Shown: positions 4,957-62,588, counted from the first letter of the stretch. The stretch: DNA of 64,000 bases from an uncultured Actinomycetota bacterium (GCA_963726575.1 CAVSCR010000007.1:475555-539554); one strand, 5' to 3'. Program-made: numbers and translations. The notes: a model not told the origin generated them from the sequence alone.

Positions 4957-4962
4957 CCTTGT

Positions 4963-5172: not shown

Positions 5173-5175
5173 ACG

Positions 5176-6403: not shown

Positions 6404-6620
6404 CCGTTGGATCCGGCCGGCCCCCTAGTCGTCGATCTTGGCTGAGACGACGAAACCAGCTGCAGGAGCTGGGGTTCCGGGTCGTCCACCTCGAGAAGTC
6501 CCTGCTCACCTCGCGTCATGAGGTGGTTCGCACGATCGCCGCAGTACTGCGGTTGCAGGGGTGGGTCGGAGACCCCGACTTCACGTTCAACAGTGACTGG
6601 GCGCCAGGGCCCGAACCCCG

Positions 6621-6696
6621 TGTTGATCTAGGAGATGATGCTGGCTTTTCAAGATCAACTTACACATCAAGTCCAAGATCAACTTTGGTTTGGGTT
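6621..6696. repeat. AT-rich conserved intergenic element, copy A (TGTTGATC ... CAAGATCAAC-N14-CAAGATCAAC)
   Basis: About 85% identical over ~75 nt to 47136-47210. It is ~35% GC in a ~70% GC background and lies between the convergent corA and CFA-synthase genes. Confidence 0.6.
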
Positions 6697-7946: not shown

Positions 7947-7961
7947 CGTGGTCTGCCTTTC

Positions 7962-9335: not shown

Positions 9336-9384
9336 CGTAGGAAGGTCGACCGAACCTGACCAGGGAACCCCGGGATCGGCCAGG

Positions 9385-9876: not shown

Positions 9877-9902
9877 CGTCGTCGCGGTCACGACGGCTCT
9901 GC

Positions 9903-10178
9903 TCAGCCGTGCGTGCCCGGCTCGTCCTCGGCACGCGCACGGATGGCCGGATTCCCCGATCGCCGTGCCCGGCCCGAGGCACCGGGCTGCGTCGTCGTGG
10001 TGGGCTTGCGTTGCGACGGTCCGAGCGAGCGCGTCACGACGACGAGCATGATCAGGCCGCACGCGATGTAGCACACCGGCACGAACCAACGAGCGCCGTT
10101 CAGGGCCGACATCACCGCCAAGCCGAACCACGCAGCAGTGATCACGACGCTGGCGATGAAGCGACCACGCGAGCCCAT
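9903..10178 (-). CDS. Small membrane protein (2 predicted TM helices)
   Basis: 91-aa ORF with hydrophobic stretches FIASVVITAAWFGLAV and VPVCYIACGLIMLVVV, placed directly upstream of the PH-domain gene. Confidence 0.35.
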   Translation of the reverse strand: MGSRGRFIASVVITAAWFGLAVMSALNGARWFVPVCYIACGLIMLVVVTRSLGPSQRKPTTTTQPGASGRARRSGNPAIRARAEDEPGTHG

Positions 10179-10258
10179 GACAGAACTCCCACTGAGCCAG
10201 GGGTGTACTGGATCGAGACGACGCTACCCGACCGGGCAGCGGATCGGTCCCGGCTCGG

Positions 10259-11875
10259 TCAGATCCGGAACCGGGCGATCGACTGCCGCAAGTCGTCCGC
10301 CAAGGACGTCAGCGACGCGGCGGCGGCTGCCGCATGGCGCGACCCATCCGCGGACTGCTGCGACACCGTCGACACCGCAGCCATGGCGCCCACCACATCA
10401 GCCGACGCCGAACGCTGCATCTGGCTGGCGTTGGAGATCTCGCGGGCTGCAGTCGTCGTCTCATCGGCCATGTCAGAGATCCGCTCGAGCACTGACACGA
10501 CGTCGCGCGCCAGGGCGACGCCGGTCACGACTTCGTCTGCGCCCTGTGCGGTCACCTGGGTGGTGGCGCGCATCTCGCCCTGGATCTCGTTGACGATCCC
10601 CTGAATCTGCTTGGTCGACGTCTGGGCGCGCTCGGCCAGCTTGCGCACCTCGGCGGCGACGACGGCGAAGCCGCGGCCATGTTCGCCGGCGCGCGCGGCC
10701 TCGATCGCGGCATTCAGAGCCAGCAGGTTCGTCTGGTTGGCCAGGTCGTCGATCACCACCAGGATCCGGCCGATCTCACCGGAGCGGTCGGCCAACGCCG
10801 CAGTGCGCTCGGCCACCGCACGGGAACGCTCGGCGATGGCATCGATCGCCGTCACTGCCTGTGCGACCGCCGTCTGGCCCTGCTCGGCGTACTGATAGGT
10901 GAGAGCGGCGTGGTCGACCACCTCGGCACTGCTCGCGGCGATCTGCTCGGCCATGCTGGCGAGTTGTTCCAGGGTGGTCGTCGACTCCACGAGCGCGTTG
11001 GACTGCTCGGTGGTGGCTATCGCCTGTGCCTGCGCGGCGTGGTGCAACTCGGTGGCACTGCCGGCAATGCGCTCACCGCCGTCGCGGACCCGGTCGACCA
11101 GCATGCGCAGGCTCACCAGCGTCTCGTCGATCGACACCGCCAAGAGGCTCAGGGACGGGTCGTCGTCCGGCGACGAGACGTGTACGGCAAGGTCACCGTC
11201 GGCCGCCTGTGCCAACGTCACGGACAACTCGTCCACGTGACGCCTGAGGTGGTCGTTGTGCGCCTGGTGGATCGACGACTTCAGCGCGGCGTCGAACAGG
11301 ACCACCAGGGGGATGATCGCACTCGCGGCCAGCAGGAACGGGATCTCCGGGACGGTGAACGTGCCGGCCGCCAGCGTCGAGACCAGCAACAAGACGGCAC
11401 CCAGCACGGACAGGGCTACCTGGGCCTTGCGGCCCGCGACGTCGGCCACGAAGACCGCGACGGTCACGTAGAGCACCCAGACCGGGCTGGACAGCCCGCC
11501 GGTGAGGGCGACCATGCCGGCGACCCAGGCCATCTCGGCCACCAGTAGCACGAGTGGGAGGGCCGGCGGGATCGTCCACGCCTGAGCCCGGCCGTCAGCC
11601 GGCTCGCGGACCCGGCGGGCGAGTCCGGTCAGCAGGATCGCCAGGCCGACGCCGCCGGCGCACCAGAAGAGCATGGGGACGAGGAGCACGGGGACGGACC
11701 GGTCGACCGCACGGAGCAGCAGTCCCAGGGTCAGCCCCAGGCCAAGGTTGAGCCACGCCGCGACCGCGGCGGACCGCGCGACTTGAGACGAGTTGTCCAT
11801 CGCCCTGGCGAGCCCCCTGTGCTCATGGACGTCCCCGACGCCGGAGTAGACGTCGCAACCGATCTTCGGCATCAC
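10259..11875 (-). CDS. Methyl-accepting chemotaxis protein (multi-TM N-terminus, MCP signalling domain)
   Basis: Highly conserved MCP core [35 protein letters not shown], with about 6 N-terminal TM helices. Confidence 0.8.
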
Positions 11876-11991
11876 CGCAGCGACACTTGACTCGATCGGG
11901 CTAGTCCGGGCCTGGTACGCCGAACGGGTGATGGGCCCTCCGGAGTAACCATGCTCCGGTCGGCGCCTGTGGGGTACGGCACCATGAGCCG

Positions 11992-13455
11992 GTGAGTTCG
12001 CAGGCGGCGGTGGCCGCAGGGAACCGCGACACGGTGGCTGCCGCGGTGTCCGTGCTCCGAGCCGGGGGCAATGCCTTCGACGCCGCGCTGGCGGCGGGGT
12101 TCGCGGCCGCCGTCACCGAGCCGGGGCTGTCCAGCCTCGGCGGAGGTGGCTTCCTGCTGGCCCACCACGCGAGCGGACGGCAGGAGCTCTACGACTTCTT
12201 CGTCGACGTCCCGGGACGGGGTCGTTCGGCTCAGGTGCGCGAGCCGCACTTCACGCCGGTCACCGTCCAGTTCGCCGGGATCGCCCAGGTGTTCTACGCC
12301 GGCTACGGCTCGGTGGCGGTGCCAGGCTGCCTGGACGGCTACCTCATGGCCCACGCCCGTTTGGGCCGACTCCCCCTGGCGGCCGTCGTCGGGCCGGCGC
12401 AGCGCCTGGCAGAGGACGGCTTTGCCTTGGCGCCGACGCAGGCCGACGTGCTCCAGCTGCTGACGGGGATCTTGTCGCTGACGAAGGAGGGACGTGCCGC
12501 GTTCTTGCCGCACGGCCGGCTGCCGGTTGCTGGGGAGACGCTGCGCCAACCCGACTACGCCGACACCCTGGCCCGAATCGCGTCGGGCGGGATCCAGGGG
12601 TTCGCCAGCGCCGGACTCGGCGACGTGCTGGCGTCGGCGATGAGCGAGCACGACGGTCTGGTGGGTGCGGACGACCTGGCCGGATACGCACCTGTGGTCC
12701 GTGCACCGTTGTCGGTGGACTATCGCGGCTGCCGGATCGCCACCAACCCACCACCGTCCTTCGGCGGCAGCATCGTCATGCGCGCGCTTTCGTTGTTCGG
12801 CGAAGGCGCCCAGCTCGCCGCCCCGAACGACCTGGCCCGCCTGGTCGGCACCGTCGCGACGGCCACGGAGGAGGAGAAGCGACGTCGCGCAGGACCGTCA
12901 TCCAGCCAGGGAACGACACACGTCAGCGTGGTCGACGGCGACGGCAACGTCGCCTCGATGACGACGTCGAACGGCTCGTGTTCAGGGGTCTTCGTCCCCG
13001 GTACGGGCATCCAGCTCAACAACGTCATGGGTGAGCGCGACCTGCATCCCGAGGGTTTCCACGTGGCCGAACCCGGGACCCGGGTGGCCTCGATGATGGC
13101 CCCGACGGTGATCACCGCTCCTGACGGCTCGGTCACTGCACTCGGCAGCGGCGGCAGCGAGCGGATCCGCAGCGCGCTGCTGCAAGTGATCGTCAACCTC
13201 ATCGATCGAGGGCAGACGCCCGAGCAGGCTGTGACAGCTCCCCGGGTCCATCTCGACGACGGCGTCGTGCAGGCCGAGCCCGGTTTCGCCACGGAGACCT
13301 ACGAAGCCTTGTCACAGGTCTTCGACGTGAACGCGTGGTCGCGTCCGGATCTGTACTTCGGCGGCACCCACGTCGTGCGTCTCGACGCGCACGGGCGGGC
13401 GACGGCCGCGGGTGACCCGCGACGCGGTGGGGCCTCAGCCGTGGTCGACCTGTGA
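11992..13455 (+). CDS. ggt: Gamma-glutamyltransferase family protein
   Basis: GGT signatures: GGGGF, the autoprocessing threonine region [21 protein letters not shown], and GSGGS. Confidence 0.8.
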
Positions 13456-14817
13456 TCCGCCTGCCAGTCGTTCCACACGCGCGTGCAGCCAACCCAACGT
13501 CGTCTCGCTCTCTGGCTTGAGCAGGACGCTGCGCAAGATCCTTGGCCGTTCGACGTCGGCCACGATCCCGGGACACGCGTGCGCAAGCTGATCACCGGTG
13601 ACTCGCAGCGTCGACAGGTACACCGGGTCGATCGCGTCGTCCATGCCTTCGGTGAGCATCCTCGCCGACTCCCGGTCCACCGCCGACGCGGTCGCGCGTC
13701 GGGGCAGATAGGTGACGATGTCGGTCGCCGGTGGGACGAAGGGAGCCAGAACCTGCGACGTCTCCAGCAGTTCGTGCCAGCGCACCGCTGCTCGCCGTCC
13801 CGCCGCCAGCCCGGCGCCCAGGCCGTCGTGGCTCAGCGGGAACACCTGCAGGGTGAGCCACAGTGCCGCCGCAGCCGCGCCGGCGCGCGAGCATTCGAGG
13901 CTGATCTCACCGAGGTGCAGCTCGTCGGACGTGAAGTACGTGTACGGGGAGTCGTGCGCGTAGAAGCGACCGACGGCCGGATCACGGAACAACACTGCTC
14001 CGCACCCGTAGGGCTGCAACCCGTGCTTGTGGGGGTCAACGACCACCGAATCCGCCTGCGCGATCGCCAGCCACGGCGGCGGCTCGACGCCGCCGGCAGC
14101 GTCAGACGCGCCCGTCGCCAGCAGCCGGAAGAATCCGCCGTACGCCGCATCGACGTGGACCCGTGCACCGTACTCATGCGCCAAGGGCACGATCGCGTCG
14201 ATCGGATCCACTGCGCCGAGTCCGGTCGTGGCTGCGGTCGCGACGACTGTTCCGACCGTGCCCGTCGCCAACACGTCACGGAGTGCGGCGACGTCCATGC
14301 GGCCTGCGTCGTCGGTCGGCACCGGAGTCGACTCGATGCCGAGGAGACGACACATCCTGGCGTGGGTGTAGTGGCTGTCGACGGAGAAGGCGACGCCGGC
14401 GCGGGGGTGGAGTTCGCGCGCCACGAACAGCGCCTCCAGGTTCGCGATGGTTCCGCTGCTGGTGAGGTGACCGAGGTGCTGTTCGAAGCCGAACATGGCG
14501 GCGAGGTCGGCCACCACCTCCTTCTCCATGCGCGCCGTCGCGGGTCCACCGTCGAGCGCGTGGTTGTTCGGGTTGATGAGCATCGTGGCCAGGTAGCCCA
14601 CCACGGCCACCGGGTGCGGCGGCTTGAGCATCTGCCCGGCATAGCGAGGGTGGTGGAAGGGGTAGTTGTCGCCCAGTCGGTCGACGAGGTGCTCCAGGGC
14701 GCTCGCCAGCCTCGCCTCGTCGACCACCTGGGAGGAATGCGGCTCGAACTGACCGGCCTGCGACTGCCAGTCCTGGACCGCCTCGACCGCACGCGTGGTC
14801 CAGACGTTCAGGTCCAC
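13435..14817 (-). CDS. Pyridoxal-phosphate-dependent group II decarboxylase (aspartate/glutamate/diaminobutyrate decarboxylase family)
   Basis: YPFHHPRYAGQMLKPP, SVDSHYTHARM and a PLP-lysine region. The ORF track extends to 14988 across a tRNA gene, so the start was trimmed to the GTG at 14817. Confidence 0.75.
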   Translation of the reverse strand: MDLNVWTTRAVEAVQDWQSQAGQFEPHSSQVVDEARLASALEHLVDRLGDNYPFHHPRYAGQMLKPPHPVAVVGYLATMLINPNNHALDGGPATARMEKEVVADLAAMFGFEQHLGHLTSSGTIANLEALFVARELHPRAGVAFSVDSHYTHARMCRLLGIESTPVPTDDAGRMDVAALRDVLATGTVGTVVATAATTGLGAVDPIDAIVPLAHEYGARVHVDAAYGGFFRLLATGASDAAGGVEPPPWLAIAQADSVVVDPHKHGLQPYGCGAVLFRDPAVGRFYAHDSPYTYFTSDELHLGEISLECSRAGAAAAALWLTLQVFPLSHDGLGAGLAAGRRAAVRWHELLETSQVLAPFVPPATDIVTYLPRRATASAVDRESARMLTEGMDDAIDPVYLSTLRVTGDQLAHACPGIVADVERPRILRSVLLKPESETTLGWLHARVERLAGGSQVDHG

Positions 14818-14841
14818 GCGTCCGCCCTTCGGCCGGTCGGC

Positions 14842-14925
14842 GGCGAGGGAGGGATTTGAACCCCCGGAGGATCGCTCCTCAGACGCTTTCAAGGCGCCCG
14901 CATTAGGCCGCTCTGCCACCTCGCC
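14842..14925 (-). tRNA. tRNA-Ser (anticodon TGA), long variable arm
   Basis: rc = GGCGAGGTGGCAGAGCGGCCTAATGCGGGCGCCTTGAAAGCG...GGTTCAAATCCCTCCCTCGCC, with anticodon loop CTTGAAA. Confidence 0.8.
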
Positions 14926-31507: not shown

Positions 31508-34500
31508 GTGATCGCCTGCCCGGCGTGCGGTACCCAGAACCCTGAGGGCTTCGTCTTCTGTGGTCGATGCGCGACGCCGCTGACGGGCAAGTCGGCATCG
31601 GTCCGCGAAGAGCGGAAGGTGGTCACGGCCCTGTTCTGCGACCTTGTCGACTTCACCTCGACCTCTGAGTCCGTCGACCCCGAAGACGTCGACGCAATGC
31701 TCGCCGCGTATTTCGCCATGGCACAGGCGCGGATCGAGACCCACGGCGGAATCGTCGAGAAGTTCATCGGCGATGCCGTCGTCGGCATCTTCGGCGTTCC
31801 AGCCGCGCACGAGGACGATCCGGAGCGCGCTGTGCGTGCGGCACTGCGCATCGTCGAGGACGCCGAAAGCATGACGTCGGTGAACGACGCGCCGCTTCGC
31901 CTGCGGATCGGCGTCAACACCGGCGAGACGTTGGTGCGGCTGGGAGTTGTACCCGGCTCGGGTGACGGGTTCATCACCGGTGACGCGATCAACACCGCGT
32001 CTCGTATCCAGACGGTCGCACCTGACATGGGCGTTGCCGTCGGGCCGAGCACATTCGAGATCACCAAGTCGGTGTTCGACTACGCCGAGCTGCCGACCGC
32101 GACCTTGAAGGGCAAGTCAGTGCCCGTCGCGGTGTTTCACGCAAAGTCGCCACTCGCGCGCTTCGGCGCGGATGTGACCCGCAGCCACGACACACCGTTC
32201 GTCGGCCGGGAGGTGGACCTGGCCCTGCTGAAGGGGTTGTTCGACAAGACGGTCGCGTCGGCTGCCCCCCAGCTCGTGACCGTCGTCGGCGAACCCGGAC
32301 TCGGTAAGAGCAGGTTGGTGGCGGAGTTCTTTCGACACATCGACCGACTGCCGCAGCTCATCACGTGGCGACAAGGCAGCTGTCCGCCGTACGGAGAAGG
32401 AATCACCTTCTGGGCGTTGGGCGAGATCCTCAAGGCACACGCTGGGATTCTCGAGTCGGACTCACCAGAGGTTGCCTCCGCGAAGCTCGACGCCGTGCTC
32501 CCCGAGGACGGGGAGCGTGCCTGGTTTCGGCAACGGCTGCTGCCGCTGCTCGGAATCGAAGCGACGTCGACAGCCGAGCGAGAGGAGCTCTACACGGCGT
32601 GGCGGCGGTTCCTGGAGCACATCGCTGAAGCCGACCCCACAGTGCTCGTGTTCGAGGACCTGCATTGGGCCGACCCCGCGATGCTGGACTTCATCGAGCA
32701 TCTGGCCGACCGGGCCGGAGGCGTGCCCCTGCTGATCATCGGGACAAGCGCGTCCAGAGCTGTTCGAGAAGCACCCCGACTACGCGCGCGGCCTACGCAA
32801 CTCCACACCCATCAACCTGGGTCCACTGTCGGAGCAGGAGACCGCACGCCTCGTGTCGGCCCTGCTGGACAGCGCAGTCATACCGGCCGATCTGCAGGCG
32901 CCGCTGCTGGAACGGGCAGGCGGCAACCCGCTCTACGCCGAGGAATACGTGCGGCTGCTCAAGGACAAGAACCTGTTGACTCGCAACGGCGCCACTTGGC
33001 AGCTCGTCGAAGGAGCCGACATCCCCTTCCCCGACTCCGTGCAGGCGCTGATCGCGGCGCGGATCGACACGTTGTCGCCCGCACGCAAGGCCATGCTGGC
33101 GGACGCAGCCGTGGTCGGAAAGTCCTTCTGGGTCGGCGCCGTCGCGGCGATGGGGGACGTGCCGGAGGACGACGTGGCCGAGGCCATGCGGGAACTGACC
33201 CGCAAGGAGCTCGTCAGACCGGTGCGTCACTCCAGCATGGAGGGCCAGGCGGAGCTCGCCTTCTGGCACGTGGTCGCCCGCGATGTCGCCTACGGTCAAC
33301 TTCCGCGCGCGGTTCGAGCGGCTCGCCACGTGGCAGCGGCGGCGTGGATCGAGTCGCACTCAGGTGGACGAGCGGAGGACTCCGCCGATGTCCTCGCCTA
33401 CCACTACGCCACCGCGGTGGATCTGACCCAAGCCGCCGGTGAGCTCGACCAGGTGGCGACGCTCCAGGCCTCCGCCCTGCGCTTCTTGACCCTCGCCGGC
33501 GAGCGTGCCCTCGGCCTTGACACCACCGCCGCGCTCTCGAACTTTCAGCGAGCGTTGGACCTCACTGCACCCGCAGACCCGGCGCGTCCTAGTGCACTCG
33601 CCAAGTTCGGTGAGGCTGCGCTGCACGCCGGCCGTCTCGCTGAGGCGCAGCGAACCTTGGAGCAGGCGGAGGAGGCGTATCGGGCACGCGCCGATGTGCT
33701 GGCGCAAGCCCGCTGCCTGGTCCTCCTCTCACACGTGATGCACCGGCTAGGCGACAGTCGATGGGCAGAGCCTCCCGGCGAGAGCGGTGGAGCTGCTCGA
33801 GCCGCTGCCGCCGGGCCCAGCGATCATCGACGCCTACAGTGAGATCGCTCGACGCGACACGCTGCAGGCCAGGAACGAGTCGGCCATCAGCTACGCGAAC
33901 CTGGCGCTCGACCTGGCCGTTCGACCTCGGGCACGACCAGCCGGCTCGGGCGCTCGGTTACCGGGGTGGCGCACGGGCGAGCCTCGGGGACGCAGAAGGA
34001 CTCGACGACCTCCAGGAAGCGATCGTGTGGGCCACCGATGCGGGCCAGGGACGTGAAGTCGCGGTGCTCCACAACAACCTGGCTCTGGCGGTCTGGAAGT
34101 TCCACGGGTCTCGTGCCTCGCTCGAGGTCGCCGAAGCCGGTATCGCACTTCGCCACGGGCGCGAGGATTGGCCGAGATGTCCGAAGCGCTCGATAGCCAT
34201 GACGGTCGACCTGCTCAACGAGGTCGGCCGGGCCAGCGAGGCTCTCCTGGTGGCAGCAGAACTTGCACCGCGCCTGGAAGCCAGCGGTTCTGTCTTCAGA
34301 CCTGATAGGCGTGCGCCCGATTCAAGTAGTGGATTCTGGTGACGCAAGGCCGAGCGGCTGACGCGGCTCAGCTCTTGGACTGGATCGAGTCGACCTCGCG
34401 GATCACCGGCGATCCCGAAGACGTCGTGGTGGGCCTCGGGTCTGTTGCGCTGGCTCGAGCCGCCCTCGGGCAGGCGGCCACGGCTGCGGCCTTGTTGCGC

Positions 34501-53736: not shown

Positions 53737-56037
53737 TCAGGGCGTCAGGACCAGTGACCACGCCAGCTGGCTGCCGGAGGGCTGGTCGGTGCTGGCGGCG
53801 GTGCCCGGCACACTGCCGGGCGCGGCGGGGCCGGCGATGTCACCGATCAGGGCGTCGATGTGACCGCCACCGGTGCCGTCCGACGTCGAGCGCGCCGTCA
53901 TTCCGCTCGGGGTGATCCACCTGGTGGCGCTGGACGAACGGCTCGACCAGTACGACACCACCCACGACCCGGGGGTCGTGACGGTGGTGGCGGGGGTAGC
54001 GAACGTCGTCAGACTCGAGCTGCCGGTGCGGGCCACCGCGCTCGCCAACGGACCGGCGGCGTTGGTTCCGGAGTAGGCCAGCAGCTGCACCGTGGCCTTC
54101 GTCAACTGCGTCCCGAACGACACGGTCACGCTGTTCCCGGGGTCACTGCCGGTGGCAACGCGCTGCCACACGGTGCTGTACATGGTCGAGCTGCTCGCGG
54201 TCTTCACCACCTGCCATCCACTCGGGGCGGTCTGCGGTGTGGCTGTTGCGCTCGTGGCCACCAGGAGCAGGCCGTTACCTGCGCTCACGCTGGCCGGGAT
54301 CGTGATGGTCTGTGCCTTCGCATTTGCTGCGCTGGCGGTTGACGCAACGAATCGGATCCCGTTCCCCGGCGCGACCACGGTGACGTTGTGAGTGGTGGTC
54401 GTGACGTCGCCGCTCGAGTCGGTGATCGACAGCACCACGGCGTAGGTGCCGGGCGCCGCGAAGGTGTGGGACGTGGTGATGCCGGATCCCGCATTCACGT
54501 CACCGAAGTCCCAGGAGTAACCGGTCACGCTCGCCCCTGGGGCCGTCGAGGTCGAGGCGTCGAAGCTGCACGTCAGAGCACTGCACGACGACGTGAACGC
54601 GGCCGTCGCCGACACCACCGTGAGCTGCTGGCTCGTGGTCGCTGTGGCGCCGAGCCCGTCGCCGACGGTGACCGTGACGACGTAGGTGCCACCACTGGTG
54701 TAGTGGTGCGGGACCGAGGGCACGTCGGTGGTCTGCTGGCCCGTGCCGTCGCCGAAGTCCCACTGGTATGACGTGATGCCCGCAAGCGTTGAGCCGCTTG
54801 CATCAGCTGTGCAGTGCAGCAGGAGACACGAGACGGTCAAGGCCGCCTGGCTGGGCGGTGCGACCGTCACGATCTGTGACGCCGATGCGACCTGACCGTC
54901 GCCATCGGTCACGGTCAGCGAGGCGGAGTAGCTGCCGGCGTCGGTGTACGTGTGGGTGACAACAGCACCGCTTTGCGGTGGGCTCCCGTCCCCGAAGTCC
55001 CAGTCGTAGGACGACAGAGCTGTGCCCTGGGAGCCGGAGCCGTCGAAGGTGCACGTCAGGCCGCTGCACTGCGTGGAGATGTGAGCCGTCGGCGTGGCGG
55101 GTCCGGCCAGACCGAAGTCGGCGAGCAGGTCCGGTGCGCTGGAGGCCAGGCCCAGCTCGCTGACACCGAGCAGGTCCTCGGTGGCCCGCAACGTCGAGTA
55201 CTGCGTCAGCTTGCGGGTCGACGTCGTCCCGACGCTGTACGGGCTGATCACCAGCAGCGGGATGTGGCAGGACTGACTGGTGCTGTTCGTGCAGTCGACG
55301 CCCTTCAAGGTGCCGGCCGCTGAGCCTTCGTCGAACGTGACGATGACGACGGTCGAGCCCGAGGTGAACTCCGGGCTGTTCAGGACGGCAGGAAGGTTCG
55401 CGGACAACCACGAGTCGCCAGTGGCGATGCTGCCGCTGTGCATGTCGTTGGCAAGGTTCGGCGAGATGAACGAGAACGCCGGCAGGGTGTGGTTGGCCAA
55501 GTCGGTCGCGAGCTGGGTGTAGTTCACGTCGTTCGCCTTGCAGCTGTCCGGCGTGATGTCGGTGAAGTACAGCGCGGGGTTGTGGCGCGGCACGTACAGA
55601 CCACCGGAGTCCTGAACCCGGCGACAGGGCGTAGTCATGGACTCCTGGTACGCCCGCCAACTGCTCACCTGGGTGAACAGGTCGGGACCCGGCTTGGTGC
55701 ATGTGGTGCAGTCGGTGGCGGGAAGTTGAGCCAGAGGGAGCCCCGACAGGCCACCGATGTAGTTCGGCGCGCTCGGGTGGGTGATGCCCCACGCATTGGT
55801 GGCGGAGCCGTACTGGTTGGCCAGCGAGTTGAGGTACGGGGCCGACGACGACCCGATCACGTCGTTGTAGGAGCGGTTCTCCATCCAGACCCAGACGACG
55901 TGCTGGATCCCGCTGCGCGCCGCACCGGTCGTCGCAGCCCGCGCCACCGAGGTGGCAGTCAGCGCCCCCATCATGGAGACGACGGCCAGGGCGGACACCA
56001 CGATCGTGAGCAACGCAAGCCGGGCGGGCCTGGCCAA
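53737..56037 (-). CDS. Secreted phosphoesterase (phospholipase C / acid phosphatase family, PF04185-like) with four PKD domains and a C-terminal beta-rich domain
   Basis: Signal peptide, HVVWVWMENRSYNDV...HPSAPNY phosphoesterase motifs, then 4 repeats of the PKD consensus (YSWDFGDGS.../YQWDFGDGT...). Confidence 0.75.
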   Translation of the reverse strand: MARPARLALLTIVVSALAVVSMMGALTATSVARAATTGAARSGIQHVVWVWMENRSYNDVIGSSSAPYLNSLANQYGSATNAWGITHPSAPNYIGGLSGLPLAQLPATDCTTCTKPGPDLFTQVSSWRAYQESMTTPCRRVQDSGGLYVPRHNPALYFTDITPDSCKANDVNYTQLATDLANHTLPAFSFISPNLANDMHSGSIATGDSWLSANLPAVLNSPEFTSGSTVVIVTFDEGSAAGTLKGVDCTNSTSQSCHIPLLVISPYSVGTTSTRKLTQYSTLRATEDLLGVSELGLASSAPDLLADFGLAGPATPTAHISTQCSGLTCTFDGSGSQGTALSSYDWDFGDGSPPQSGAVVTHTYTDAGSYSASLTVTDGDGQVASASQIVTVAPPSQAALTVSCLLLHCTADASGSTLAGITSYQWDFGDGTGQQTTDVPSVPHHYTSGGTYVVTVTVGDGLGATATTSQQLTVVSATAAFTSSCSALTCSFDASTSTAPGASVTGYSWDFGDVNAGSGITTSHTFAAPGTYAVVLSITDSSGDVTTTTHNVTVVAPGNGIRFVASTASAANAKAQTITIPASVSAGNGLLLVATSATATPQTAPSGWQVVKTASSSTMYSTVWQRVATGSDPGNSVTVSFGTQLTKATVQLLAYSGTNAAGPLASAVARTGSSSLTTFATPATTVTTPGSWVVSYWSSRSSSATRWITPSGMTARSTSDGTGGGHIDALIGDIAGPAAPGSVPGTAASTDQPSGSQLAWSLVLTP

Positions 56038-56347: not shown

Positions 56348-56689
56348 TCAGTGGTTGTGCGAGAACCGGTGACCTTCGACGTCGGGGTTGTCGTCGTCGG
56401 AGTCGGCCGGGTGCCACCGGCGGTGGTGACCTTCGACGTCCAGTTCCTCTGTGTCGCCGTCGTCGGGACGGTGTGCGATGCGGTGGCCTTCGACGTCCAG
56501 CTCTTCGGTGCCGTCGTCGGGACGGTGTGCGATGCGGTGGCCTTCGACGTCCAGCTCTTCGGTGCCGTCGTCGGGACGGTGTGCGATGCGGTGGCCTTCG
56601 ACGTCCAGCTCTTCGGTGCCGTCGTCGGGACGGTGTGCGATGCGATGGCCTTCGACGTCCAGGTCGTTCCGCTCGGGTGTGTCGTTCAT
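56348..56689 (-). CDS. Small acidic histidine-rich tandem-repeat protein (six D-V-E-G-H motifs, predicted intrinsically disordered)
   Basis: ATG at 56689 with a GAAGGAG Shine-Dalgarno 6 nt upstream. Product MNDTPERNDLDVEGHRIAHRPDDGTEE(x4)...DVEGHRFSHNH. The ORF track starts 15 codons earlier. Confidence 0.55.
   Translation of the reverse strand: MNDTPERNDLDVEGHRIAHRPDDGTEELDVEGHRIAHRPDDGTEELDVEGHRIAHRPDDGTEELDVEGHRIAHRPDDGDTEELDVEGHHRRWHPADSDDDNPDVEGHRFSHNH
56424..56680. repeat. Tandem 54-bp direct repeats (3 perfect copies at 56482-56643, with degenerate copies on each side) inside the small His-rich gene
   Basis: Unit GGTGGCCTTCGACGTCCAGCTCTTCGGTGCCGTCGTCGGGACGGTGTGCGATGC repeats head-to-tail with 100% identity. 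Confidence 0.9.
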
Positions 56690-56717
56690 GTCGTACTCCT
56701 TCGGGTGGTCGCGCGCG

Positions 56718-56736
56718 GTGTGCGTGCGGGTCACAC
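56718..56736. promoter_or_regulatory. CRP/FNR-like palindrome GTGTGcgtgcgggtCACAC in the divergent intergenic region
   Basis: TGTG-N9-CACA is one nt longer than the canonical TGTGA-N6-TCACA. A Crp/Fnr-family regulator gene is 1.6 kb away. Confidence 0.3.
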
Positions 56737-56886
56737 GATCCCCGTGTGGGCGCTGCAGGTCCGCAAGGCGGATGACACCGTGAACGTCGGCTGGCTGACA
56801 GTCCCGACGATAGCCCGAAGTGACCGTGCCCGCTGCGGGCTTTCGCCTTCCTTCGCCATACTGCCCACCAACTGAAGGAGAAGGCG

Positions 56887-57516
56887 ATGGAACCGACCAG
56901 GGTCAGCGATGACACGTTCGCCACGCCGGAGTGGGCGGCCGCCCCTGACCTGCCGCCGCTCGTGGCCCGGCTGCTCGGCACGGTAGGGCCCCTCCTGGGG
57001 GCGGCCGCGTGCTCGGTGGCCCTCGTCGAGCGGGGCCGGGCGCTGCGGTTCATCGCCGCAACGGGCAAGGGGGCCCGGGACATCGTCGGCCAGTCGATGC
57101 CCACCGATCGGGGGGTGGCGGGCTGGGCGGTCACCACCGGTCAGGCCATCAGCGTGGGAGACGTCGAGTCCGACGCCCGCTTCCACCGCGACCTCGCCGA
57201 GTCCACCGGCTACGTGCCGCGCCAGATCACCGCGGTGCCGATCATGGGCGACGACGACGCCATGGGCGTCCTGGAGGTGCTCGACGGTGACCACGCGCAG
57301 ATGACGTCGCCGGCCGGCACCGCTGCGTTGCACGGGCTGGTGGCCACTACGGCCGACCTGATCGCCACGCTGGGGACCGGTTCGTCGAACTCGGCCAGCC
57401 AACGGTCGCTGACTGAGGCATTGGCTCGGCTCGACGACGCAGATCCCGACCTGGTGGAGCACCTCAGCGCCGTCATCCAAGCCCTGTCAGGTGGCCGCGG
57501 GGGATATCGCCGATGA
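56887..57516 (+). CDS. GAF domain protein
   Basis: GAF fold pattern (RGRALRFIAATGKGARDIVGQSMPTDRGVAGWAVTTGQAISVGDVESDARF). Shine-Dalgarno GAAGGAGAAGG upstream. ATGA overlap with the S8 gene. Confidence 0.75.
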   Translation: MEPTRVSDDTFATPEWAAAPDLPPLVARLLGTVGPLLGAAACSVALVERGRALRFIAATGKGARDIVGQSMPTDRGVAGWAVTTGQAISVGDVESDARFHRDLAESTGYVPRQITAVPIMGDDDAMGVLEVLDGDHAQMTSPAGTAALHGLVATTADLIATLGTGSSNSASQRSLTEALARLDDADPDLVEHLSAVIQALSGGRGGYRR

Positions 57517-58325
57517 TGCCCCACGGCGCCGACGGCATGGCCGCGGCGTTGGCCCAGCACGTTCCCACGCTCCCCATGGCCAGTCCGGCCTGGGAGTGGG
57601 CGACGCAGGGTGCCACCGGCGCCGGCATCACCGTGGGCATCATCGACAGCGGGATCGACCCCAAGCACGCCGATGTAGGGCCGATCAGCCGCTCGCTCCT
57701 GGCCACCCGCGACGACTCCGGTGAGGTCGTGGTGGTGGACGACGAGGAAGCCGTGGACGTGGTCGGGCACGGCACCGCCTGCGCCGCCATCATCCGGGGG
57801 CTGGCGCCAGAGGTTGAGCTCGTGTCGATCCGCGTGCTCAACGACGACCTCAAGGGTCATGCGCGCATGTTCGCGGCCGGCCTCGACTGGGCAGTGGAGA
57901 ATGGCATTTCGGTCGTGAACCTCAGCCTCAGCACCTCCAACGACGCCTGGTTCGCCTCCTTCCACGACCTCGCCGACCAGGCGTACTTCGCCGGCACCGT
58001 CCTGGTTGGCGCGCTCAACAACGTGCCGCGACCGAGCTTTCCCACCGAGTACGCGGCCGTGGTGTCGGTGGCGTCCCTGCCCGACAACGACGCCGGCCCG
58101 CTGGCGTACAACCCGAAGGGTCCGGCTGAGTTCGGAGCACCCGGCCTCGACGTCCGGGTGGCCTGGCTGGATGGTGGCCACGCCACGGTCACGGGCAACA
58201 GCTTCGCGTCGCCCTACGTGGCCGGGCTGGTGGCCCAGATGCGCAGCAAGCACCCGTGGCTCCAGCCGTTCCAGGTGAAAGCCGTGCTGCAGGCCATGGC
58301 GGTCAACGCCACGGCCGCCCCCTGA
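57513..58325 (+). CDS. Minimal intracellular S8 (subtilisin-like) serine peptidase, no signal peptide or pro-domain
   Basis: Catalytic triad contexts GIIDSGID (Asp), VGHGTACAAI (His) and TGNSFASPYVAG (Ser). 270 aa. Confidence 0.85.
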   Translation: MMPHGADGMAAALAQHVPTLPMASPAWEWATQGATGAGITVGIIDSGIDPKHADVGPISRSLLATRDDSGEVVVVDDEEAVDVVGHGTACAAIIRGLAPEVELVSIRVLNDDLKGHARMFAAGLDWAVENGISVVNLSLSTSNDAWFASFHDLADQAYFAGTVLVGALNNVPRPSFPTEYAAVVSVASLPDNDAGPLAYNPKGPAEFGAPGLDVRVAWLDGGHATVTGNSFASPYVAGLVAQMRSKHPWLQPFQVKAVLQAMAVNATAAP

Positions 58326-58340: not shown

Positions 58341-59003
58341 CTACCAGCCGGTGCGTTGGCGCAGGCCGGGCGGGTCGAGGATCTCGACCCTTCCCCGCGC
58401 GAGTCGGACCAGTCCCAGCTCCTCCAGCCGACGCAGCGCCTGGTTCGCCGTCGGTCGGGTCGTCCCGGCCAGCCCGGCCACGTCATCTTGGGTCAGCGGC
58501 ACGATCACGGGGACGCCGTCGTCGATGTACAGCCGGCCGACCTCGTACAACCGACGGGCCACCCGGCGGTCGACCGACACGAAGTGCGCCTCGGCCACCA
58601 GGCCGCTCAGGCGCTCGGCGCGAAGCGCGAGCAGCCGTAGGAACATGTCACTGACCTCGGGATAGGCGTGGCGCAACTCGTGGAAGGCGTCCTTGCGCAG
58701 CGTCAACGTCTCCACGGCCTCCAGCGCGACGATCGTGGCGGTGCGCTCGGCCCGGTCGATGAACAGAGCCATCTCGCCGAACACCTCACCTGGACCCATG
58801 ACCGACAACGTCACCGTCTCGCCGCGCACCGTCGAGACCCGGGCGGCGACGCGTCCGGTCTGGATGAGATGGACGACGTCTCCCGGGTCGCCCTCGTGGC
58901 AGACCACTTCACCGCGCGCGAACCGCCGGGGTCGACCGGCCTGCACGAGTGCGTCGCGCGCCGCGTCCGGCAACCCACTCGCGGCGTGCGGCGCGGTGGA
59001 CAT
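58341..59003 (-). CDS. Crp/Fnr family transcriptional regulator
   Basis: cNMP-binding domain (GEVFGEMALF) plus a C-terminal HTH (DVAGLAGTTRPTANQALRRLEELGLV). Confidence 0.8.
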   Translation of the reverse strand: MSTAPHAASGLPDAARDALVQAGRPRRFARGEVVCHEGDPGDVVHLIQTGRVAARVSTVRGETVTLSVMGPGEVFGEMALFIDRAERTATIVALEAVETLTLRKDAFHELRHAYPEVSDMFLRLLALRAERLSGLVAEAHFVSVDRRVARRLYEVGRLYIDDGVPVIVPLTQDDVAGLAGTTRPTANQALRRLEELGLVRLARGRVEILDPPGLRQRTGW

Positions 59004-59233: not shown

Positions 59234-60085
59234 TCAGACGAGCGGGAGGGCGGCCGCGAGGGCCTCGTCCCACGGTCGCATCGGAGGCAGCCCGGCCCGG
59301 GCCCAGCCGGCGTGGCCGAGTACCGACCACGTCGGCCGTGGTGCCGGCCGCGGGTACTCCTGCGTCGTGCAGGGGACGACATGCGTGGTCGTGTCACCGG
59401 CGTACCGCAGCACCGCCTCGGCCAGGCCGTGCCACGTCGTCGCACCGGCGTTCGTCGCGTGGTAGGTCCCAGGCGGGGCGTCCACCTCGACGACGTCGAC
59501 GATGCGGTGCGCCAGGTCCACCGTCCAAGTGGGCTGGCCGTGCTGGTCGTCGACGACCCGCAGCTCGTCCCGCTCGGCGGCGAGCCGTCGGATCGTCGCG
59601 ACGAAGTTGGGCCCGTGCCACCCGTAGAGCCACGCGGTGCGCAACACCCACGAGCGGTCGGGCAGCTCGGCTCGGACGGCCCACTCCCCGGCGGCCTTCG
59701 TCCGCCCGTACGCGGTCCGCGGGTCCTGCGGCGCGTCCTCGGGGTACGGGGCGACGGCCTGCCCAGCAAACACGTAGTCGGTGGAGAGCTGGAGCAGCCG
59801 GGCTCCGGTTGCCCGGCACGCCCGGGCCAGCAGAGCCGGCCCGACGGCGTTCACCCGGAACGCAGCAGCCTCGGCAGCTTCGGCGCCGTCGACGTCGGTC
59901 CATGCGGCGGCGTTCACCACCACGTCCACGCCAAGCACCGCGTCGCCCACCTGCGCCTCATCGGTGACGTCGAGGGTGGCGCGGTCGGCCGCCCGGGCAT
60001 CGTCGAGTGGGCGCCGGTCGGCGAGCACGGCCAGCAGGTCGGTGCCGAGCATCCCGCCGGCACCGGTGACGAGCCAGCGCGTCAC
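59234..60085 (-). CDS. rmlD: dTDP-4-dehydrorhamnose reductase
   Basis: RmlD pattern (LVTGAGGMLG ... STDYVF ... YGRTK). GTGA overlap with the rmlB stop. Confidence 0.85.
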   Translation of the reverse strand: MTRWLVTGAGGMLGTDLLAVLADRRPLDDARAADRATLDVTDEAQVGDAVLGVDVVVNAAAWTDVDGAEAAEAAAFRVNAVGPALLARACRATGARLLQLSTDYVFAGQAVAPYPEDAPQDPRTAYGRTKAAGEWAVRAELPDRSWVLRTAWLYGWHGPNFVATIRRLAAERDELRVVDDQHGQPTWTVDLAHRIVDVVEVDAPPGTYHATNAGATTWHGLAEAVLRYAGDTTTHVVPCTTQEYPRPAPRPTWSVLGHAGWARAGLPPMRPWDEALAAALPLV

Positions 60086-61077
60086 GAGCCCACGAGCGCC
60101 GCGCGCGCCTTCAACGGCTCCCACCAGTCTCGATGCTCCTGGTACCAGGCGACGGTCGCGGCAAGCCCGGCGCCGAAGGTGACCTGCGGCCGGTAGCCGA
60201 GCTCGTCGGCGATCTTGGAGATGTCGACCGAATAGCGCAGGTCGTGGCCGAGGCGGTCATCGACATGGCGCACGCGCTCCCAGCCCGCGCCCACCGCGGC
60301 GAGCAGGCGCTCGGTCAGCTCCCGGTTGGACAGCTCGGTGCCGCCACCGATGTTGTAGACCTCGCCGGGCCGGCCGGCATCCGCAACGAGTTGCACCCCC
60401 CGGCAGTGGTCGTCGACGTGGAGCCAGTCGCGGACGTTCCGGCCGTCGCCGTAGAGGGGGACGGTGCCGCCGTCGAGGAGGTTCGTCACGAACAGCGGGA
60501 TGACCTTCTCGGGGAACTGGTAGGGCCCGTAGTTGTTGGAGCAGCGGGTGACGACGACGGGAAGCCCGAAGGTGCGGTGGTAGGCCAGGGCGACGAGGTC
60601 GGAGGAGGCCTTGCTGGCCGCATACGGCGAGTTCGGCGACACCGGGTGCGTCTCTGGCCAGGAGCCAGCCTCGATCGAGCCGTACACCTCGTCGGTGGAC
60701 ACGTGCACGAACCGGGCGACGTCGTGGCGGCAGGCGGCGTCGAGGAGAGTCTGGGTGCCCAGGACGTTGGTGAGGACGAAGTCGGCGGCGCCGGTGATGG
60801 AGCGGTCGACGTGGGACTCCGCGGCGAAGTGCACGACGACATCGGCACCGGCCAGGACGTCTTCGACGCAGGCCGGGTCGCAGATGTCGCCCTCGACGAA
60901 CGTCAGCCGGGGGTCGTCGGCAACTGGGTCGAGATTGGCGCGGACGCCGGCATAGGTGAGCTTGTCGATTACGGTGAGGGCGCTGGGCGCGGCGGGGGTG
61001 GCCATGCGGCCATCGAGGAGCATGCGGACGTAATTCGAGCCGATGAAGCCCGCACCACCGGTCACGACGTAGCGCAC
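60082..61077 (-). CDS. rmlB: dTDP-glucose 4,6-dehydratase
   Basis: YVVTGGAGFIGSNYV, HFAAESHVDRS and YAASKA motifs. The start is an internal GTG of a longer track ORF. Confidence 0.85.
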   Translation of the reverse strand: MRYVVTGGAGFIGSNYVRMLLDGRMATPAAPSALTVIDKLTYAGVRANLDPVADDPRLTFVEGDICDPACVEDVLAGADVVVHFAAESHVDRSITGAADFVLTNVLGTQTLLDAACRHDVARFVHVSTDEVYGSIEAGSWPETHPVSPNSPYAASKASSDLVALAYHRTFGLPVVVTRCSNNYGPYQFPEKVIPLFVTNLLDGGTVPLYGDGRNVRDWLHVDDHCRGVQLVADAGRPGEVYNIGGGTELSNRELTERLLAAVGAGWERVRHVDDRLGHDLRYSVDISKIADELGYRPQVTFGAGLAATVAWYQEHRDWWEPLKARAALVGS

Positions 61078-61110
61078 CGGCCCAGTCTGACACGAGGCCA
61101 CGGTTAAGGT

Positions 61111-61995
61111 ATGGCGGTGCGTGGAATCGTGCTGGCCGGTGGGACCGGGTCGCGGCTGTGGCCGGTCACGCAGGCGGTGAGCAAGCAGCTGATGCCGGTG
61201 TATGACAAGCCGATGGTGTACTACCCGCTCACCACGTTGATGGTGGCGGGGATCCGTGAGGTGCTCTTCATCACCACCCCCGAGGACACCTGGGCGTTTC
61301 GTCGCCTGCTCGGCGACGGGTCCGCCTGGGGGTTGCGGATCGAGTACGCCGAGCAGCCCCGGCCCGAGGGTCTGGCGCAGGCGTTCGTCATCGGCGCGGA
61401 CTTCATCGGTGACGAGCCGGTGGCTCTCGTCCTCGGCGACAACATCTTCTACGGGGTGGGGTTGGGCACCCAACTGCGGGCAGCTACCGCAGTGGACGGC
61501 GGGCGGGTCTTCGCCTACCGGGTGGCCAACCCCAGCGAGTACGGGGTGGTGGAGTTCGACCCCGCCGGGGTGGTCCGCTCGATCGAGGAGAAGCCGGCGG
61601 TGCCGAAGAGCAGCTACGCGGTGCCGGGGCTGTACTTCTTCACCCCGGACGTCGTCGAGATCGCCCGGGGGGTCAGGCCCAGCGCCCGTGGGGAGCTGGA
61701 GATCACCGCGGTGCATGCCGAGTACCTGCGGCAGGGCCGGCTGGAGGTGGTCGTGCTGCCCCGGGGGACGGCCTGGCTGGATACCGGAACGTTCACCACG
61801 TTGATGCAGGCCGCGGAGTTCGTGCGGGTCATTGAGGACCGGCAGGGCCGCAAGATCGGCTGCCCAGAGGAGCTGGCCTGGCGCAACGGCTGGATCGACG
61901 ACGACGCGCTGGCGGCGCTGGCCGAGCCGCTGCGGCGCAGCGGGTACGGAGAGTACCTGCTCGGGCTGCTCGCCGATCGCGACGGGCAGCGCTGA
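61111..61995 (+). CDS. rmlA: Glucose-1-phosphate thymidylyltransferase
   Basis: [36 protein letters not shown]. Confidence 0.9.
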
Positions 61996-61997
61996 GC

Positions 61998-62588
61998 ATG
62001 CACGTCGAGCCGCTGGTCGTCCCCGACGCCTTCGTCGTGACCCCCCGCCAGCACGCGGACGATCGCGGCGTCTTCCTCGAGTGGTTCAAGGCGGAGGTGT
62101 TCCAGCGCGCCAGCGGCCACCGGATGCCCTTGGGCCAGGCCAACTGCTCGGTGTCGCGCCGCGGGACGCTGCGCGGCATCCACTTTGCCGACGTGCCACC
62201 CGGGCAGGCCAAGTACGTGACGTGCACGGCCGGGGCGGTCCTCGACGTCGTCGTCGACCTCCGCGTCGGGTCGCCGACGTTCGGGGTGGGCGACACCGTC
62301 GTCCTCGACGACCAGGACCGGCAAGCGGTGTTCCTCGCTGAGGGCCTCGGCCACGCGTTCCTCGCCCTCAGCGAGACCGCGACCGTCGTGTACTTGTGCT
62401 CGACGCCCTACAACCCTGTTGCGGAGCACGGCATCCAGCCGTTGGATCCCGAGCTCGCCATCCCCTGGCCTGCCGACCTCGAGCCGTTGCTGTCACCCAA
62501 GGACGCCGCCGCCCCCACCCTCACCGAGGCTCAGGCGGCCGGGCTGCTGCCCAGCCACGAGGACTGCCTGACCGAGTACCGGCACTGA
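61998..62588 (+). CDS. rmlC: dTDP-4-dehydrorhamnose 3,5-epimerase
   Basis: Cupin RmlC motifs (RGVFLEWF, RGIHFAD). Confidence 0.9.
   Translation: MHVEPLVVPDAFVVTPRQHADDRGVFLEWFKAEVFQRASGHRMPLGQANCSVSRRGTLRGIHFADVPPGQAKYVTCTAGAVLDVVVDLRVGSPTFGVGDTVVLDDQDRQAVFLAEGLGHAFLALSETATVVYLCSTPYNPVAEHGIQPLDPELAIPWPADLEPLLSPKDAAAPTLTEAQAAGLLPSHEDCLTEYRH

Follow-up and report, generated by a model that had tools for sequence, protein, structure and literature searches.

A coupled GAF and subtilase gene pair belongs to a widespread cyclic-nucleotide signaling cassette and is a candidate for second-messenger control of peptide processing

Introduction

The subject of this report is a pair of adjacent genes, encoding a stand-alone GAF domain protein and a minimal subtilisin-like protease of peptidase family S8, in a 64,000-nt stretch of DNA from an uncultured Actinomycetota bacterium (GCA_963726575.1 CAVSCR010000007.1:475555-539554). 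This whole stretch is called the window, and positions are counted from its first letter. The pairing of the two genes is not fortuitous, and the pair is part of a widespread, undescribed cyclic-nucleotide (cNMP) signaling cassette. Small peptides with a recurrent five-residue motif are encoded in many of the same cassettes, and the evidence favors an S8 protein that processes peptides, as a leader or spacer peptidase does, over one that degrades a folded regulator. Function is read throughout from synteny and homology.

The cassette of the window is pared down to the gene of a His-containing repeat peptide, the GAF gene, the S8 gene and the gene of a Crp/Fnr-family regulator (Table 1). An initial annotation of the same DNA had described a 209-residue GAF gene that overlaps a 270-residue S8 gene by ATGA, with the regulator gene just downstream on the opposite strand, and all of this was found in place. 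The ATGA overlap indicates translational coupling of the GAF and S8 genes. The GAF gene and the divergent repeat-protein gene each have a GAAGGAG Shine-Dalgarno sequence at N6 spacing before their ATG. The listing of open reading frames (ORFs) offers GTG 56734 as an alternative start for the latter; with the ATG at 56689, which has the Shine-Dalgarno sequence, taken as the start, the intergenic region is 56690-56886.

Results

The pair and its cassette are conserved

The comparison covered 91 loci, 11 from exact-protein look-ups and 80 from a metagenome scan with the S8 alignment, whose six-frame ORFs were screened against hidden Markov models of the cassette members; S8 similarity was the basis of their selection, and phylogenetically they are not independent of one another. 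Wherever at least 700 bp was available on either side of S8 (53 loci), a same-strand GAF gene lies directly next to it, and this adjacency is conserved across Actinomycetota, Chloroflexota (Limnocylindrales) and Dormibacterota. The initial annotation had named one finding that would make the association a chance one, namely that the two genes are never neighbors in related genomes, and the opposite was observed. Over all loci the gene order is GAF-S8 in 71 and S8-GAF in seven. Among 59 GAF-S8 junctions, 45 overlap, including 33 by a 4-nt NTGA and seven by 1 nt, and nine more have gaps of at most 30 nt. Carriers include Nocardioides, Marmoricola, Jatrophihabitans, Kitasatospora, Streptomyces, Miltoncostaea, Limnocylindrales (Chloroflexota) and Dormibacteria, with Jatrophihabitans fulvus, Kitasatospora sp. 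NBC_01266 and Streptomyces sp. NBC_00184 among the culturable ones, and a search from the GAF side also reaches S8 partners (Kitasatospora, Dormibacteria).

The surroundings of the pair are dominated by cNMP functions. When loci with at least 4 kb of flank are considered, at least one cNMP gene is present in 43 of 44. A full-length Crp-type regulator occurs in 33/44 of these loci, in every orientation; a transporter of the major facilitator superfamily (MFS_3) fused to a C-terminal cNMP-binding domain in 22/44; a class III cyclase fused to AAA_16/TPR in 16/44; and a stand-alone cNMP-binding protein in 13/44. All-against-all clustering of the locus ORFs gave no further recurrent family beyond S8, GAF, the cNMP proteins and the cyclase.

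Genes outside the cassette vary by locus and are of housekeeping type (rml here; lepA, rpsT, holA and guaA elsewhere), a search of 50,697 phage genome records gave no match, and the only plasmid matches were two non-mobilizable megaplasmids, so a defense-island reading is unlikely. These observations bear on a rival explanation in which the cassette would be an anti-phage or conflict system and a cNMP alarm from the STAND-cyclase would activate the protease and the transporter, as in Pycsar or CBASS. The cyclase-AAA_16/TPR architecture would suit such a system, and PADLOC returned 'subtilase' for the S8 protein (1.6e-14) and PycTIR/Pycsar cNMP domains for the Crp protein. However, the PADLOC matches concern shared domains only, and abortive-infection modules do not typically include a transcription factor, an exporter or precursor-like peptides. 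With the domain-level matches, the flanks and the lack of phage matches in view, we rejected a defense system as the main explanation and regard it as the least probable of the alternatives considered here.

A minimal cytoplasmic subtilase

The S8 protein matches Pfam Peptidase_S8 (PF00082) at 1.5e-25 and 90.5 bits, above the cut-off of 21.8, and has the triad order (D45, H86, S230), the oxyanion Asn (N170) and the fold of a subtilisin. The triad and N170 are invariant in an alignment of 40 homologues, and therefore the enzyme should be active. Apart from the catalytic domain it contains only an N-terminal extension of ~35 residues before the catalytic Asp. The AF2 model has a plain subtilisin fold at a confidence (pLDDT) of 93.2; the extension is predicted at pLDDT ~89 and carries a PAWS...ALPL motif that, in the alignment, is common to the wider family. 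The closest solved structures by fold and profile are those of subtilisin BPN', with calcium-loop-deleted engineered variants ranking first; the calcium A-site loop appears to be absent from the S8 protein, which would suit a cytoplasmic enzyme.

Sequence analysis found no signal peptide, basic n-region, hydrophobic h-region or transmembrane segment in the S8 protein: its first 10 residues include no Lys or Arg, and its maximum 19-residue Kyte-Doolittle hydropathy is 1.27. Pfam detected no I9 propeptide and no second domain. The protein thus has neither the signal peptide nor the I9 propeptide of a classical secreted subtilisin, in agreement with the initial annotation, which had described a protease without signal peptide, propeptide or extra domain. 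A cryptic secretion signal or a pro-domain encoded upstream would have changed this picture; none was found, and the upstream DNA is wholly taken by the conserved GAF gene in another frame. The intracellular subtilisins of Bacillus are one of three precedents for small cytoplasmic subtilases. The others are QhpE (PMC7876137) and the cytoplasmic LanP ElxP (PMC10885120), and the earlier view that such enzymes are unusual calls for correction.

Comparison with curated families places the S8 protein near several of them and inside none. Its best NCBIfam match is QhpE (NF049966; 1.4e-34, 119.4 bits, over nearly the whole model, cut-off 165), followed by mycosin (TIGR03921; 1.4e-30, 106.7 bits, cut-off 278.75). 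The match to PatA/PatG TIGR03895 is weak at 0.0039, and the Streptomyces orthologue reaches 2.1e-8 (family cut-off 421). QhpE and PatA/PatG are among the top eight matches, all of which are under cut-off. Identity with QhpE was rejected on its score and on the absence of qhp genes among the neighbors; identity with mycosin was rejected on its score, the absence of hydrophobic segments and the absence of nearby ESX genes. Since the S8 protein falls below the curated cut-offs of these families, its sequence assigns it to a distinct family of minimal subtilases. This family has more than 4000 database homologues, and among the matches listed almost all have ~245-300 residues. A contig scan with the single S8 protein retrieved only a distant Frigoribacterium subtilase (32% identity).

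A GAF protein close to cyclic-nucleotide receptors

The GAF protein matches Pfam GAF_2 (3.7e-11, 43.8 bits vs 28.6), GAF (1.1e-9) and GAF_3 (4e-7). Its assignment as a GAF domain is based on Pfam scores above gathering, a confident AF2 core and Foldseek matches that are themselves GAF domains. The AF2 model has a pLDDT of 83.9; its core comprises residues ~20-163, and the C-terminal 45 residues form a helical tail that AF2 predicts with low confidence. Invariant alignment columns give the family signature F99, A104-E-S-T107-G108-Y109-V-P111 and L132-D133.

A profile built from 40 family members was searched against solved structures. The best matches were Anabaena CyaB2 (1.4e-26), Leptospira Lcd1, which was solved with cyclic AMP (cAMP; 6.4e-25), and PDE2A GAF-B (1.1e-22), with the GAFs of PDE5, PDE6 and PDE10 also in the top group; PtsP (4.5e-9), NifA (3.5e-8) and DevS (4.6e-7) came far lower in the ranking. 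The top Foldseek match of the GAF model is likewise the Lcd1 GAF with cAMP. By profile and predicted fold, the protein groups with cNMP-binding GAFs. Compared with PDE2A GAF-B, it retains the first-strand Ser (S43), the G-[VI]-A-G loop and the Thr of S-T-G (T107), and the equivalents of F438/D439 are Ala-Ala, as in the cAMP-binding CyaB2. Nucleotide binding by the GAF protein is likely on sequence grounds, and its ligand may be an unusual one. A search of representative databases with the GAF profile was swamped by giant multi-GAF proteins and is no guide to family size.

Motif-bearing peptides in the cassette

The repeat protein encoded divergently from the pair has six D-V-E-G-H copies in 113 residues, four of them within an 18-residue unit, (L)DVEGHRIAHRPDDGTEE. 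Its sequence reads MNDTPERND(LDVEGHRIAHRPDDGTEE)x4..., and it belongs to no Pfam or NCBIfam family. Searches of both databases with six repeat peptides gave spurious low-complexity matches only.

Such peptides recur beside the pair. A strict scan for [DE][VTIAL]E[GA]H with at least three copies per ORF was positive in 21/91 loci (22 ORFs), with no hits in reversed-sequence decoys or in the remaining 63 kb of the window. A broader scan, with a slightly generalized motif and at least two copies per ORF, was positive in 40/91 loci, including 25 of 43 with at least 4 kb of flank, and again gave no decoy hits. The motif ORFs lie within the cassette, a median 842 bp from S8, and are found between the Crp and GAF genes, right after S8, between the Crp gene and the cNMP-only gene, or beside the MFS gene. 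They are alike in the motif only, and their spacers range from HHHKNFADAE through AKPAAKPAAKP to GAREGFVGAR. From 118 distinct instances the consensus is an acidic run at P10-P6, then D/E, V>T>A, E, G>A and His; the residues after the His are variable and often basic or hydrophobic. A reverse search with the window's repeat protein, a short and repetitive query, gave a single match within the E-value threshold, a 75-residue protein of DVEGH/DIEGH/DTEGH repeats. Its gene stands in a same-strand array of MFS_3, zinc-ribbon-cyclase-AAA_16, cNMP/Crp, repeat, GAF and S8 genes. The repeat protein is thus a recurrent cassette member, and the conserved co-location and common motif lend support to the initial guess that the His-rich protein is a substrate or partner of the protease.

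The meaning of the motif is suggested by the Streptomycetaceae. In Kitasatospora and on a linear plasmid of Streptomyces sp. NBC_00184, the S8-GAF pair is preceded by genes for, in order, a radical S-adenosylmethionine (radical-SAM) enzyme, an iron-dependent redox enzyme, a small peptide and a cyclase-AAA_16 protein. The small peptide matches NCBIfam NF045560, 'aroma-sacti cluster domain' (73.9 bits), which is related to StsA-type sactipeptide precursors. The leader model of this family (52 positions) stops exactly at His60 of ...LDAAEPEVQAH, and a nine-residue tail follows: SEIAGGALF in Streptomyces and ANVAGGALF in Kitasatospora. A second Streptomyces precursor has three cores of the pattern xE[SA]PVGWCG[IV]HQE with PEV[VI]AH before each, and is accompanied by a SPASM radical-SAM maturase, an MFS transporter and a prolyl oligopeptidase. 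Both loci look like an uncharacterized cluster for peptides that are made by the ribosome and modified post-translationally (RiPPs). The short motif marks the leader/core or core/core boundary of RiPP-type precursors beside the same protease family, and an aliphatic P4, a small P2 and a fixed P1 are the kind of pattern that subtilases read. As with S8 peptidases that remove RiPP leaders, the protease gene stands beside precursors with a conserved boundary sequence, and DVEGH looks like a cutting site for the S8 enzyme.

Some further features of these loci and proteins were noted. The redox enzyme of the Streptomyces and Kitasatospora clusters is Haem_oxygenas_2-like. In one sub-type of motif peptide (L018 4455-5075, L074 4514-4990, L086 4423-5007, L088 1-186), a helical, leader-like N-terminus (...LLKKLSALRxTL...ERxLLDxxI...) is followed by three to six repeats that finish with V-x-[GA]-H (DEAVAH, DDVAAH, AEVEGH) and by a conserved tail at the C-terminus (...(Y/F)DPxxxEY(Q/R)V); the arrangement is closer in appearance to a precursor with a leader and multiple cores than to a pure repeat protein. 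TldD and PmbA are peptide-processing metalloproteases of microcin B17 maturation, and in one locus only (L010 1787-4565) a TldD/PmbA pair lies between a 13-copy DDTEGH repeat gene and Crp-GAF-S8. The motif also has echoes in the pair itself. Residues ~186-193 of the GAF tail (57443-57466), D-P-D-L-V-E-H-L, are loosely like it; the version D-P-[DE]-L-[VA]-[ED]-H is limited to the window's close clade and is not conserved in the wider family, and a role as pseudo-substrate is only a thought. The catalytic-His segment of the S8 protein (residues 82-87, 57756-57773), D-V-V-G-H-G, resembles D-[VT]-E-G-H-G. Across the family this segment is D-[LV]-[VC]-G-H-G-T, with D82, G85 and H86 invariant; the H-G-T context is general to subtilases, and the likeness may be a coincidence.

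Regulator, intergenic region and neighboring genes

The Crp/Fnr protein has the cNMP_binding (2.6e-23) and HTH_Crp_2 (2.9e-16) domains of its family in Pfam and, by alignment, an intact phosphate-binding cassette (FGEMAL...RTA). Its recognition helix reads T-R-P-T-A-N, and [ST]-R-[PQ]-[ST]-x-N across the regulators of the related loci, compared with R-E-T-V-G in CRP; a CRP-type box is consequently not expected. The regulator scores 65.4 bits against the CRP equivalog NF008732 (cut-off 266), and on this score, its different helix and the lack of a canonical box it was rejected as CRP proper.

The initial annotation had placed a CRP-like palindrome in the divergent intergenic region, and this claim could not be sustained. 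Imperfect inverted repeats do occur at 56718-56748 and 56808-56845, among them the off-register repeats GTGTG-N9-CACAC (56718-56736) and CACACG-N5-CGTGTG (56732-56748). No TGTGA-N6-TCACA with at most two mismatches was found in 56690-56886, and CRP boxes are fewer in the whole window than in shuffled sequence. CRP boxes are not enriched in the DNA upstream of the GAF (69) and Crp (43) genes of related loci, where the best scores equal those of shuffled sequence. No gapped palindrome was common to the related loci, where an unbiased search gave only GC-rich hairpins at low counts. Scans for sigma-70 promoters and terminators were empty. The intergenic region is highly similar in the nearest relative (L002), where the CGTGTG arm is not kept.

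The sole cassette-type cyclase of the window lies 23 kb upstream of the pair and appears frameshifted. It has the architecture of the cassette cyclases (zinc ribbon/DUF7577, Guanylate_cyc, AAA_16, TPR), and its homology runs from the ORF at 31508-33442 on into a second frame at 32853-33842. It is shorter than its relatives of ~1160 residues, which may reflect a frameshift, a truncation or an assembly error, and it is a candidate cyclic-nucleotide source in this genome. The gene just past the repeat gene encodes a protein whose N-terminus is hydrophobic in one segment and which contains a phosphoesterase domain and three PKD domains, and dTDP-rhamnose genes lie past the Crp gene. Both are ordinary, and they are not kept beside the cassette save in the nearest relative.

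Table 1. Features of the window and of two related loci, with their coordinates
Feature	Coordinates	Strand	Remarks
Stand-alone GAF gene	56887-57516	+	209 aa; ORF and Pfam
Minimal Peptidase_S8 gene	57513-58325	+	270 aa; ORF and Pfam
ATGA stop/start overlap of GAF and S8 genes	57513-57516	+	sequence
S8 catalytic Asp D45	57645-57647	+	triad
S8 catalytic His H86	57768-57770	+	triad
S8 oxyanion residue N170	58020-58022	+	alignment
S8 catalytic Ser S230	58200-58202	+	triad
His-containing acidic tandem-repeat peptide gene	56348-56689	-	113 aa from ATG 56689; divergent
54-nt tandem repeat, x4.4	56425-56662	- (gene)	96% identity
Divergent intergenic region	56690-56886	.	197 nt
Crp/Fnr-family regulator gene	58341-59003	-	220 aa; convergent, 15 nt after S8 stop
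Cassette-type cyclase	31508-33842	+	appears frameshifted
Phosphoesterase (PF04185)/PKD gene	53737-56037	-	766 aa
dTDP-rhamnose genes (rmlA-D-like)	59234-62588
Streptomyces sp. NBC_00184 RiPP cluster	L095 (NZ_CP108138.1) 1983-14845
Kitasatospora RiPP cluster	L011 (CP108458.1) 1-6603

Discussion

We propose that the GAF and S8 proteins would form a two-protein cytoplasmic peptidase, the processing step of a cNMP signaling cassette. The members of this cassette are a class III cyclase-AAA_16/TPR protein (STAND-type), a Crp-type factor, GAF-S8 and at least one small precursor-like peptide; an MFS_3 transporter that ends in a cNMP-binding domain, a free-standing cNMP-binding protein, or both are often added. 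The cyclase would produce cAMP or cyclic GMP (cGMP), and the Crp-type factor would adjust transcription of the cassette. The GAF protein, made at about 1:1 with the protease through translational coupling, would bind the nucleotide and switch S8 on or off in a complex in which it governs access to the active site. Active S8 would then cut the acidic repeat protein beside the His of acidic-[V/T]-[E/Q]-[G/A]-His or, in Streptomycetaceae, the radical-SAM RiPP precursor. With an aliphatic P4, a small P2 and His at P1, several short peptides could arise from one precursor, and the cNMP-gated MFS transporter may export them. Candidate substrates are a motif peptide such as EELDVEGHRIAHR or the whole 113-residue repeat protein. 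We favor this chain, in which a cytoplasmic peptidase under cNMP control would cut repeat or leader peptides next to the motif His, over the alternatives, and for the chain as a whole we see the balance as even.

A more far-reaching version would see second-messenger-gated peptide production in soil Actinomycetota and some Chloroflexota and Dormibacterota. Here the STAND-type class III cyclase would raise cAMP or cGMP, one and the same cNMP would act on the Crp factor, GAF-S8 and the MFS exporter, and the GAF subunit would license the subtilase to cut after the DVEGH His. The products would be short linear peptides in many copies, radical-SAM-modified in Streptomycetaceae, that serve as signals or antimicrobials. 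We put this version forward tentatively, as a possibility with somewhat more against it than for it.

Several observations weigh against gated peptide processing. Three cGMP contacts of PDE2A GAF-B, D439, D485 and T492, correspond in the GAF protein to Ala, A104 and P111, of which A104 and P111 do not vary within the family, and so the ligand may differ from a canonical 3',5'-cNMP. No GAF-S8 fusion ORF occurs in 78 pairs. The Crp gene of the window is convergent to S8, and no MFS-cNMP gene was detected across the 64 kb. Among the 43 loci flanked by 4 kb or more, 18 (~40%) gave no motif peptide. Most cassettes are without a modifying enzyme, and many 'cores' are of low complexity, for example AKP repeats. 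Bioactive peptides would hardly be expected to look like this, and a role as scaffold, decoy or metal binder would fit as well. Finally, the P2 residue (Ala vs Gly) goes with gene order (Fisher p = 0.03), a weak link in a small and non-independent sample.

Some of these points lend themselves to other explanations. The loci without a detectable motif peptide would suit the model of the initial annotation, in which GAF-S8 is a ligand-gated protease that degrades a folded signaling protein (the Crp-type factor, the cyclase or the cNMP domain of the transporter) and the repeat protein is merely co-regulated, or a pseudo-substrate or decoy. Crp-type genes in 33/44 loci and the frequent cyclases and cNMP-domain proteins would supply such targets. 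Yet the GAF is the only universal protein partner, ORF clustering having given no other recurrent family, and the motif peptides, the RiPP leader/core junction and the likeness to QhpE and PatA fit peptide processing better, so that we judge a folded target unlikely. Of the proposed ligand-gated regulatory protease, the gating stays reasonable with a GAF closest to cNMP-binding GAFs, and the degradation of a regulator gives way to peptide processing.

The substituted nucleotide contacts, with A104 and P111 invariant, would also be expected if the GAF protein were a ligand-independent folding chaperone or inhibitor in place of the propeptide and the nearby cNMP genes acted on transcription only. 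Such a role would suit an S8 enzyme without the I9 propeptide that classical subtilisins need for folding, and it would suit the 1:1 coupling. However, the nearest relatives of the GAF in sequence and fold are cNMP-binding GAFs, other cNMP sensors and cyclases abound in the cassette, and QhpE (PMC7876137) and ElxP (PMC10885120) work without a partner of this kind; we consider this explanation quite improbable.

The lack of modifying enzymes in most cassettes bears in addition on the nature of the repeat protein, which could be a disordered metal-binding (His/Asp/Glu) or buffering protein, co-regulated by cNMP and unrelated to proteolysis. His, Asp and Glu are plentiful in it, and HHH runs occur in some relatives, such as GHGHHHKNF in L010. 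But only the five-residue motif is conserved, with its invariant His and small P2, and other His content varies widely, down to AKP-rich and GAREGFV-rich versions nearly without it. Moreover, the same motif marks the RiPP leader/core boundary beside the same S8-GAF pair, and metal binding as the explanation seems highly improbable.

The literature searched describes no characterized GAF/S8 system, as the initial annotation had supposed. Neither it nor the RiPP-protease review describes a GAF subunit combined with a protease, and a link between cNMP signaling and peptide maturation or export is undescribed in the RiPP and cNMP papers retrieved. We rate the system as a putative peptide-processing subtilase under second-messenger control that is widespread and experimentally tractable. 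If the proposal is true, thousands of as yet unannotated gene pairs of the type "S8 family peptidase / GAF domain protein" would gain a role, the actinobacterial cyclase-AAA_16 (STAND) proteins, which are abundant but little understood, would gain an output, and cyclic-nucleotide signaling would be tied directly to peptide maturation and export. Tandem-repeat precursors with acidic-V-E-G-H could be mined for signals or antibiotics, and the protease could become a small, propeptide-free and possibly calcium-independent tool with a defined motif, perhaps switchable by a small molecule. The more far-reaching version would add a bacterial parallel to the processing of alpha-factor by Kex2, the first step of RiPP-type maturation known to be under allosteric cyclic-nucleotide control, and a new sequence-specific protease with P1 His.

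Each part of the proposal has a counterpart in known systems. Kex2, an S8 kexin, cuts the tandem-repeat precursor of yeast alpha-factor at a motif at the repeat ends and so releases many peptide copies; it is a eukaryotic enzyme of the secretory pathway that recognizes dibasic sites and has no nucleotide sensor, and the likeness is one of logic, not ancestry. The intracellular subtilisins of Bacillus are cytoplasmic, have no signal peptide or classical propeptide and carry a short N-terminal extension. A solved 'intracellular serine protease', 7y6m, matches the S8 protein at 6.5e-29, in a match that begins only at residue 27. In contrast to the window's protease, these subtilisins are general proteases of ~320 residues regulated by an N-terminal LIPY/F segment, whereas the extension here has PAWS...ALPL. 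The cNMP-binding GAFs (CyaB2, Lcd1, PDE2A/5/6/10) share the G-[IV]-A-G loop and the F...S-T-G-[YF] segment, and CyaB2 in addition A-A-G-x-G at the place of F438-D439 in PDE2A; in those proteins GAF and output enzyme are joined in one chain, whereas the window's GAF is a separate protein coupled to a protease.

A nucleotide messenger also turns on a cytoplasmic protease in CalpL, a SAVED-Lon defense protease activated by cyclic tetra-adenylate (cA4), which differs in sensor (SAVED/CARF vs GAF), protease clan, messenger and context. The cassette resembles Pycsar and CBASS in domain-level PADLOC matches only and showed no association with defense islands or phages. CRP-linked peptide-processing systems of a different make-up appear in a paper on conflict systems (PMC7159879).

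The closest parallels come from peptide maturation. QhpE is a cytoplasmic subtilisin-like protease of ~220 residues without propeptide that removes the leader of a peptide encoded in the same operon (PMC7876137). This single-turnover leader peptidase of quinohemoprotein amine dehydrogenase is small, cytoplasmic and propeptide-less like the window's S8 protein; it differs in having no GAF partner, and no qhp genes lie near the window's pair. The LanP enzymes, among which ElxP acts in the cytoplasm (PMC10885120), are likewise S8 enzymes that remove RiPP leaders. They are larger, many are secreted prepro-enzymes, their recognition sites are different, and none has been reported with a GAF or under second-messenger control. 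PatA cuts multicore cyanobactin precursors after G(L/V)E(A/P)S (PMC10885120), and here too an S8 peptidase is encoded beside precursors in which a short conserved sequence flanks hypervariable cores, with aliphatic, Glu and small residues ordered as in [D/E]-[V/T]-E-[G/A]-H. PatA has a DUF domain and works with a heterocyclase and a macrocyclase, whereas the S8 protein here is free of extra domains, its GAF partner is obligatory, cNMP genes accompany it and modifying enzymes are usually missing.

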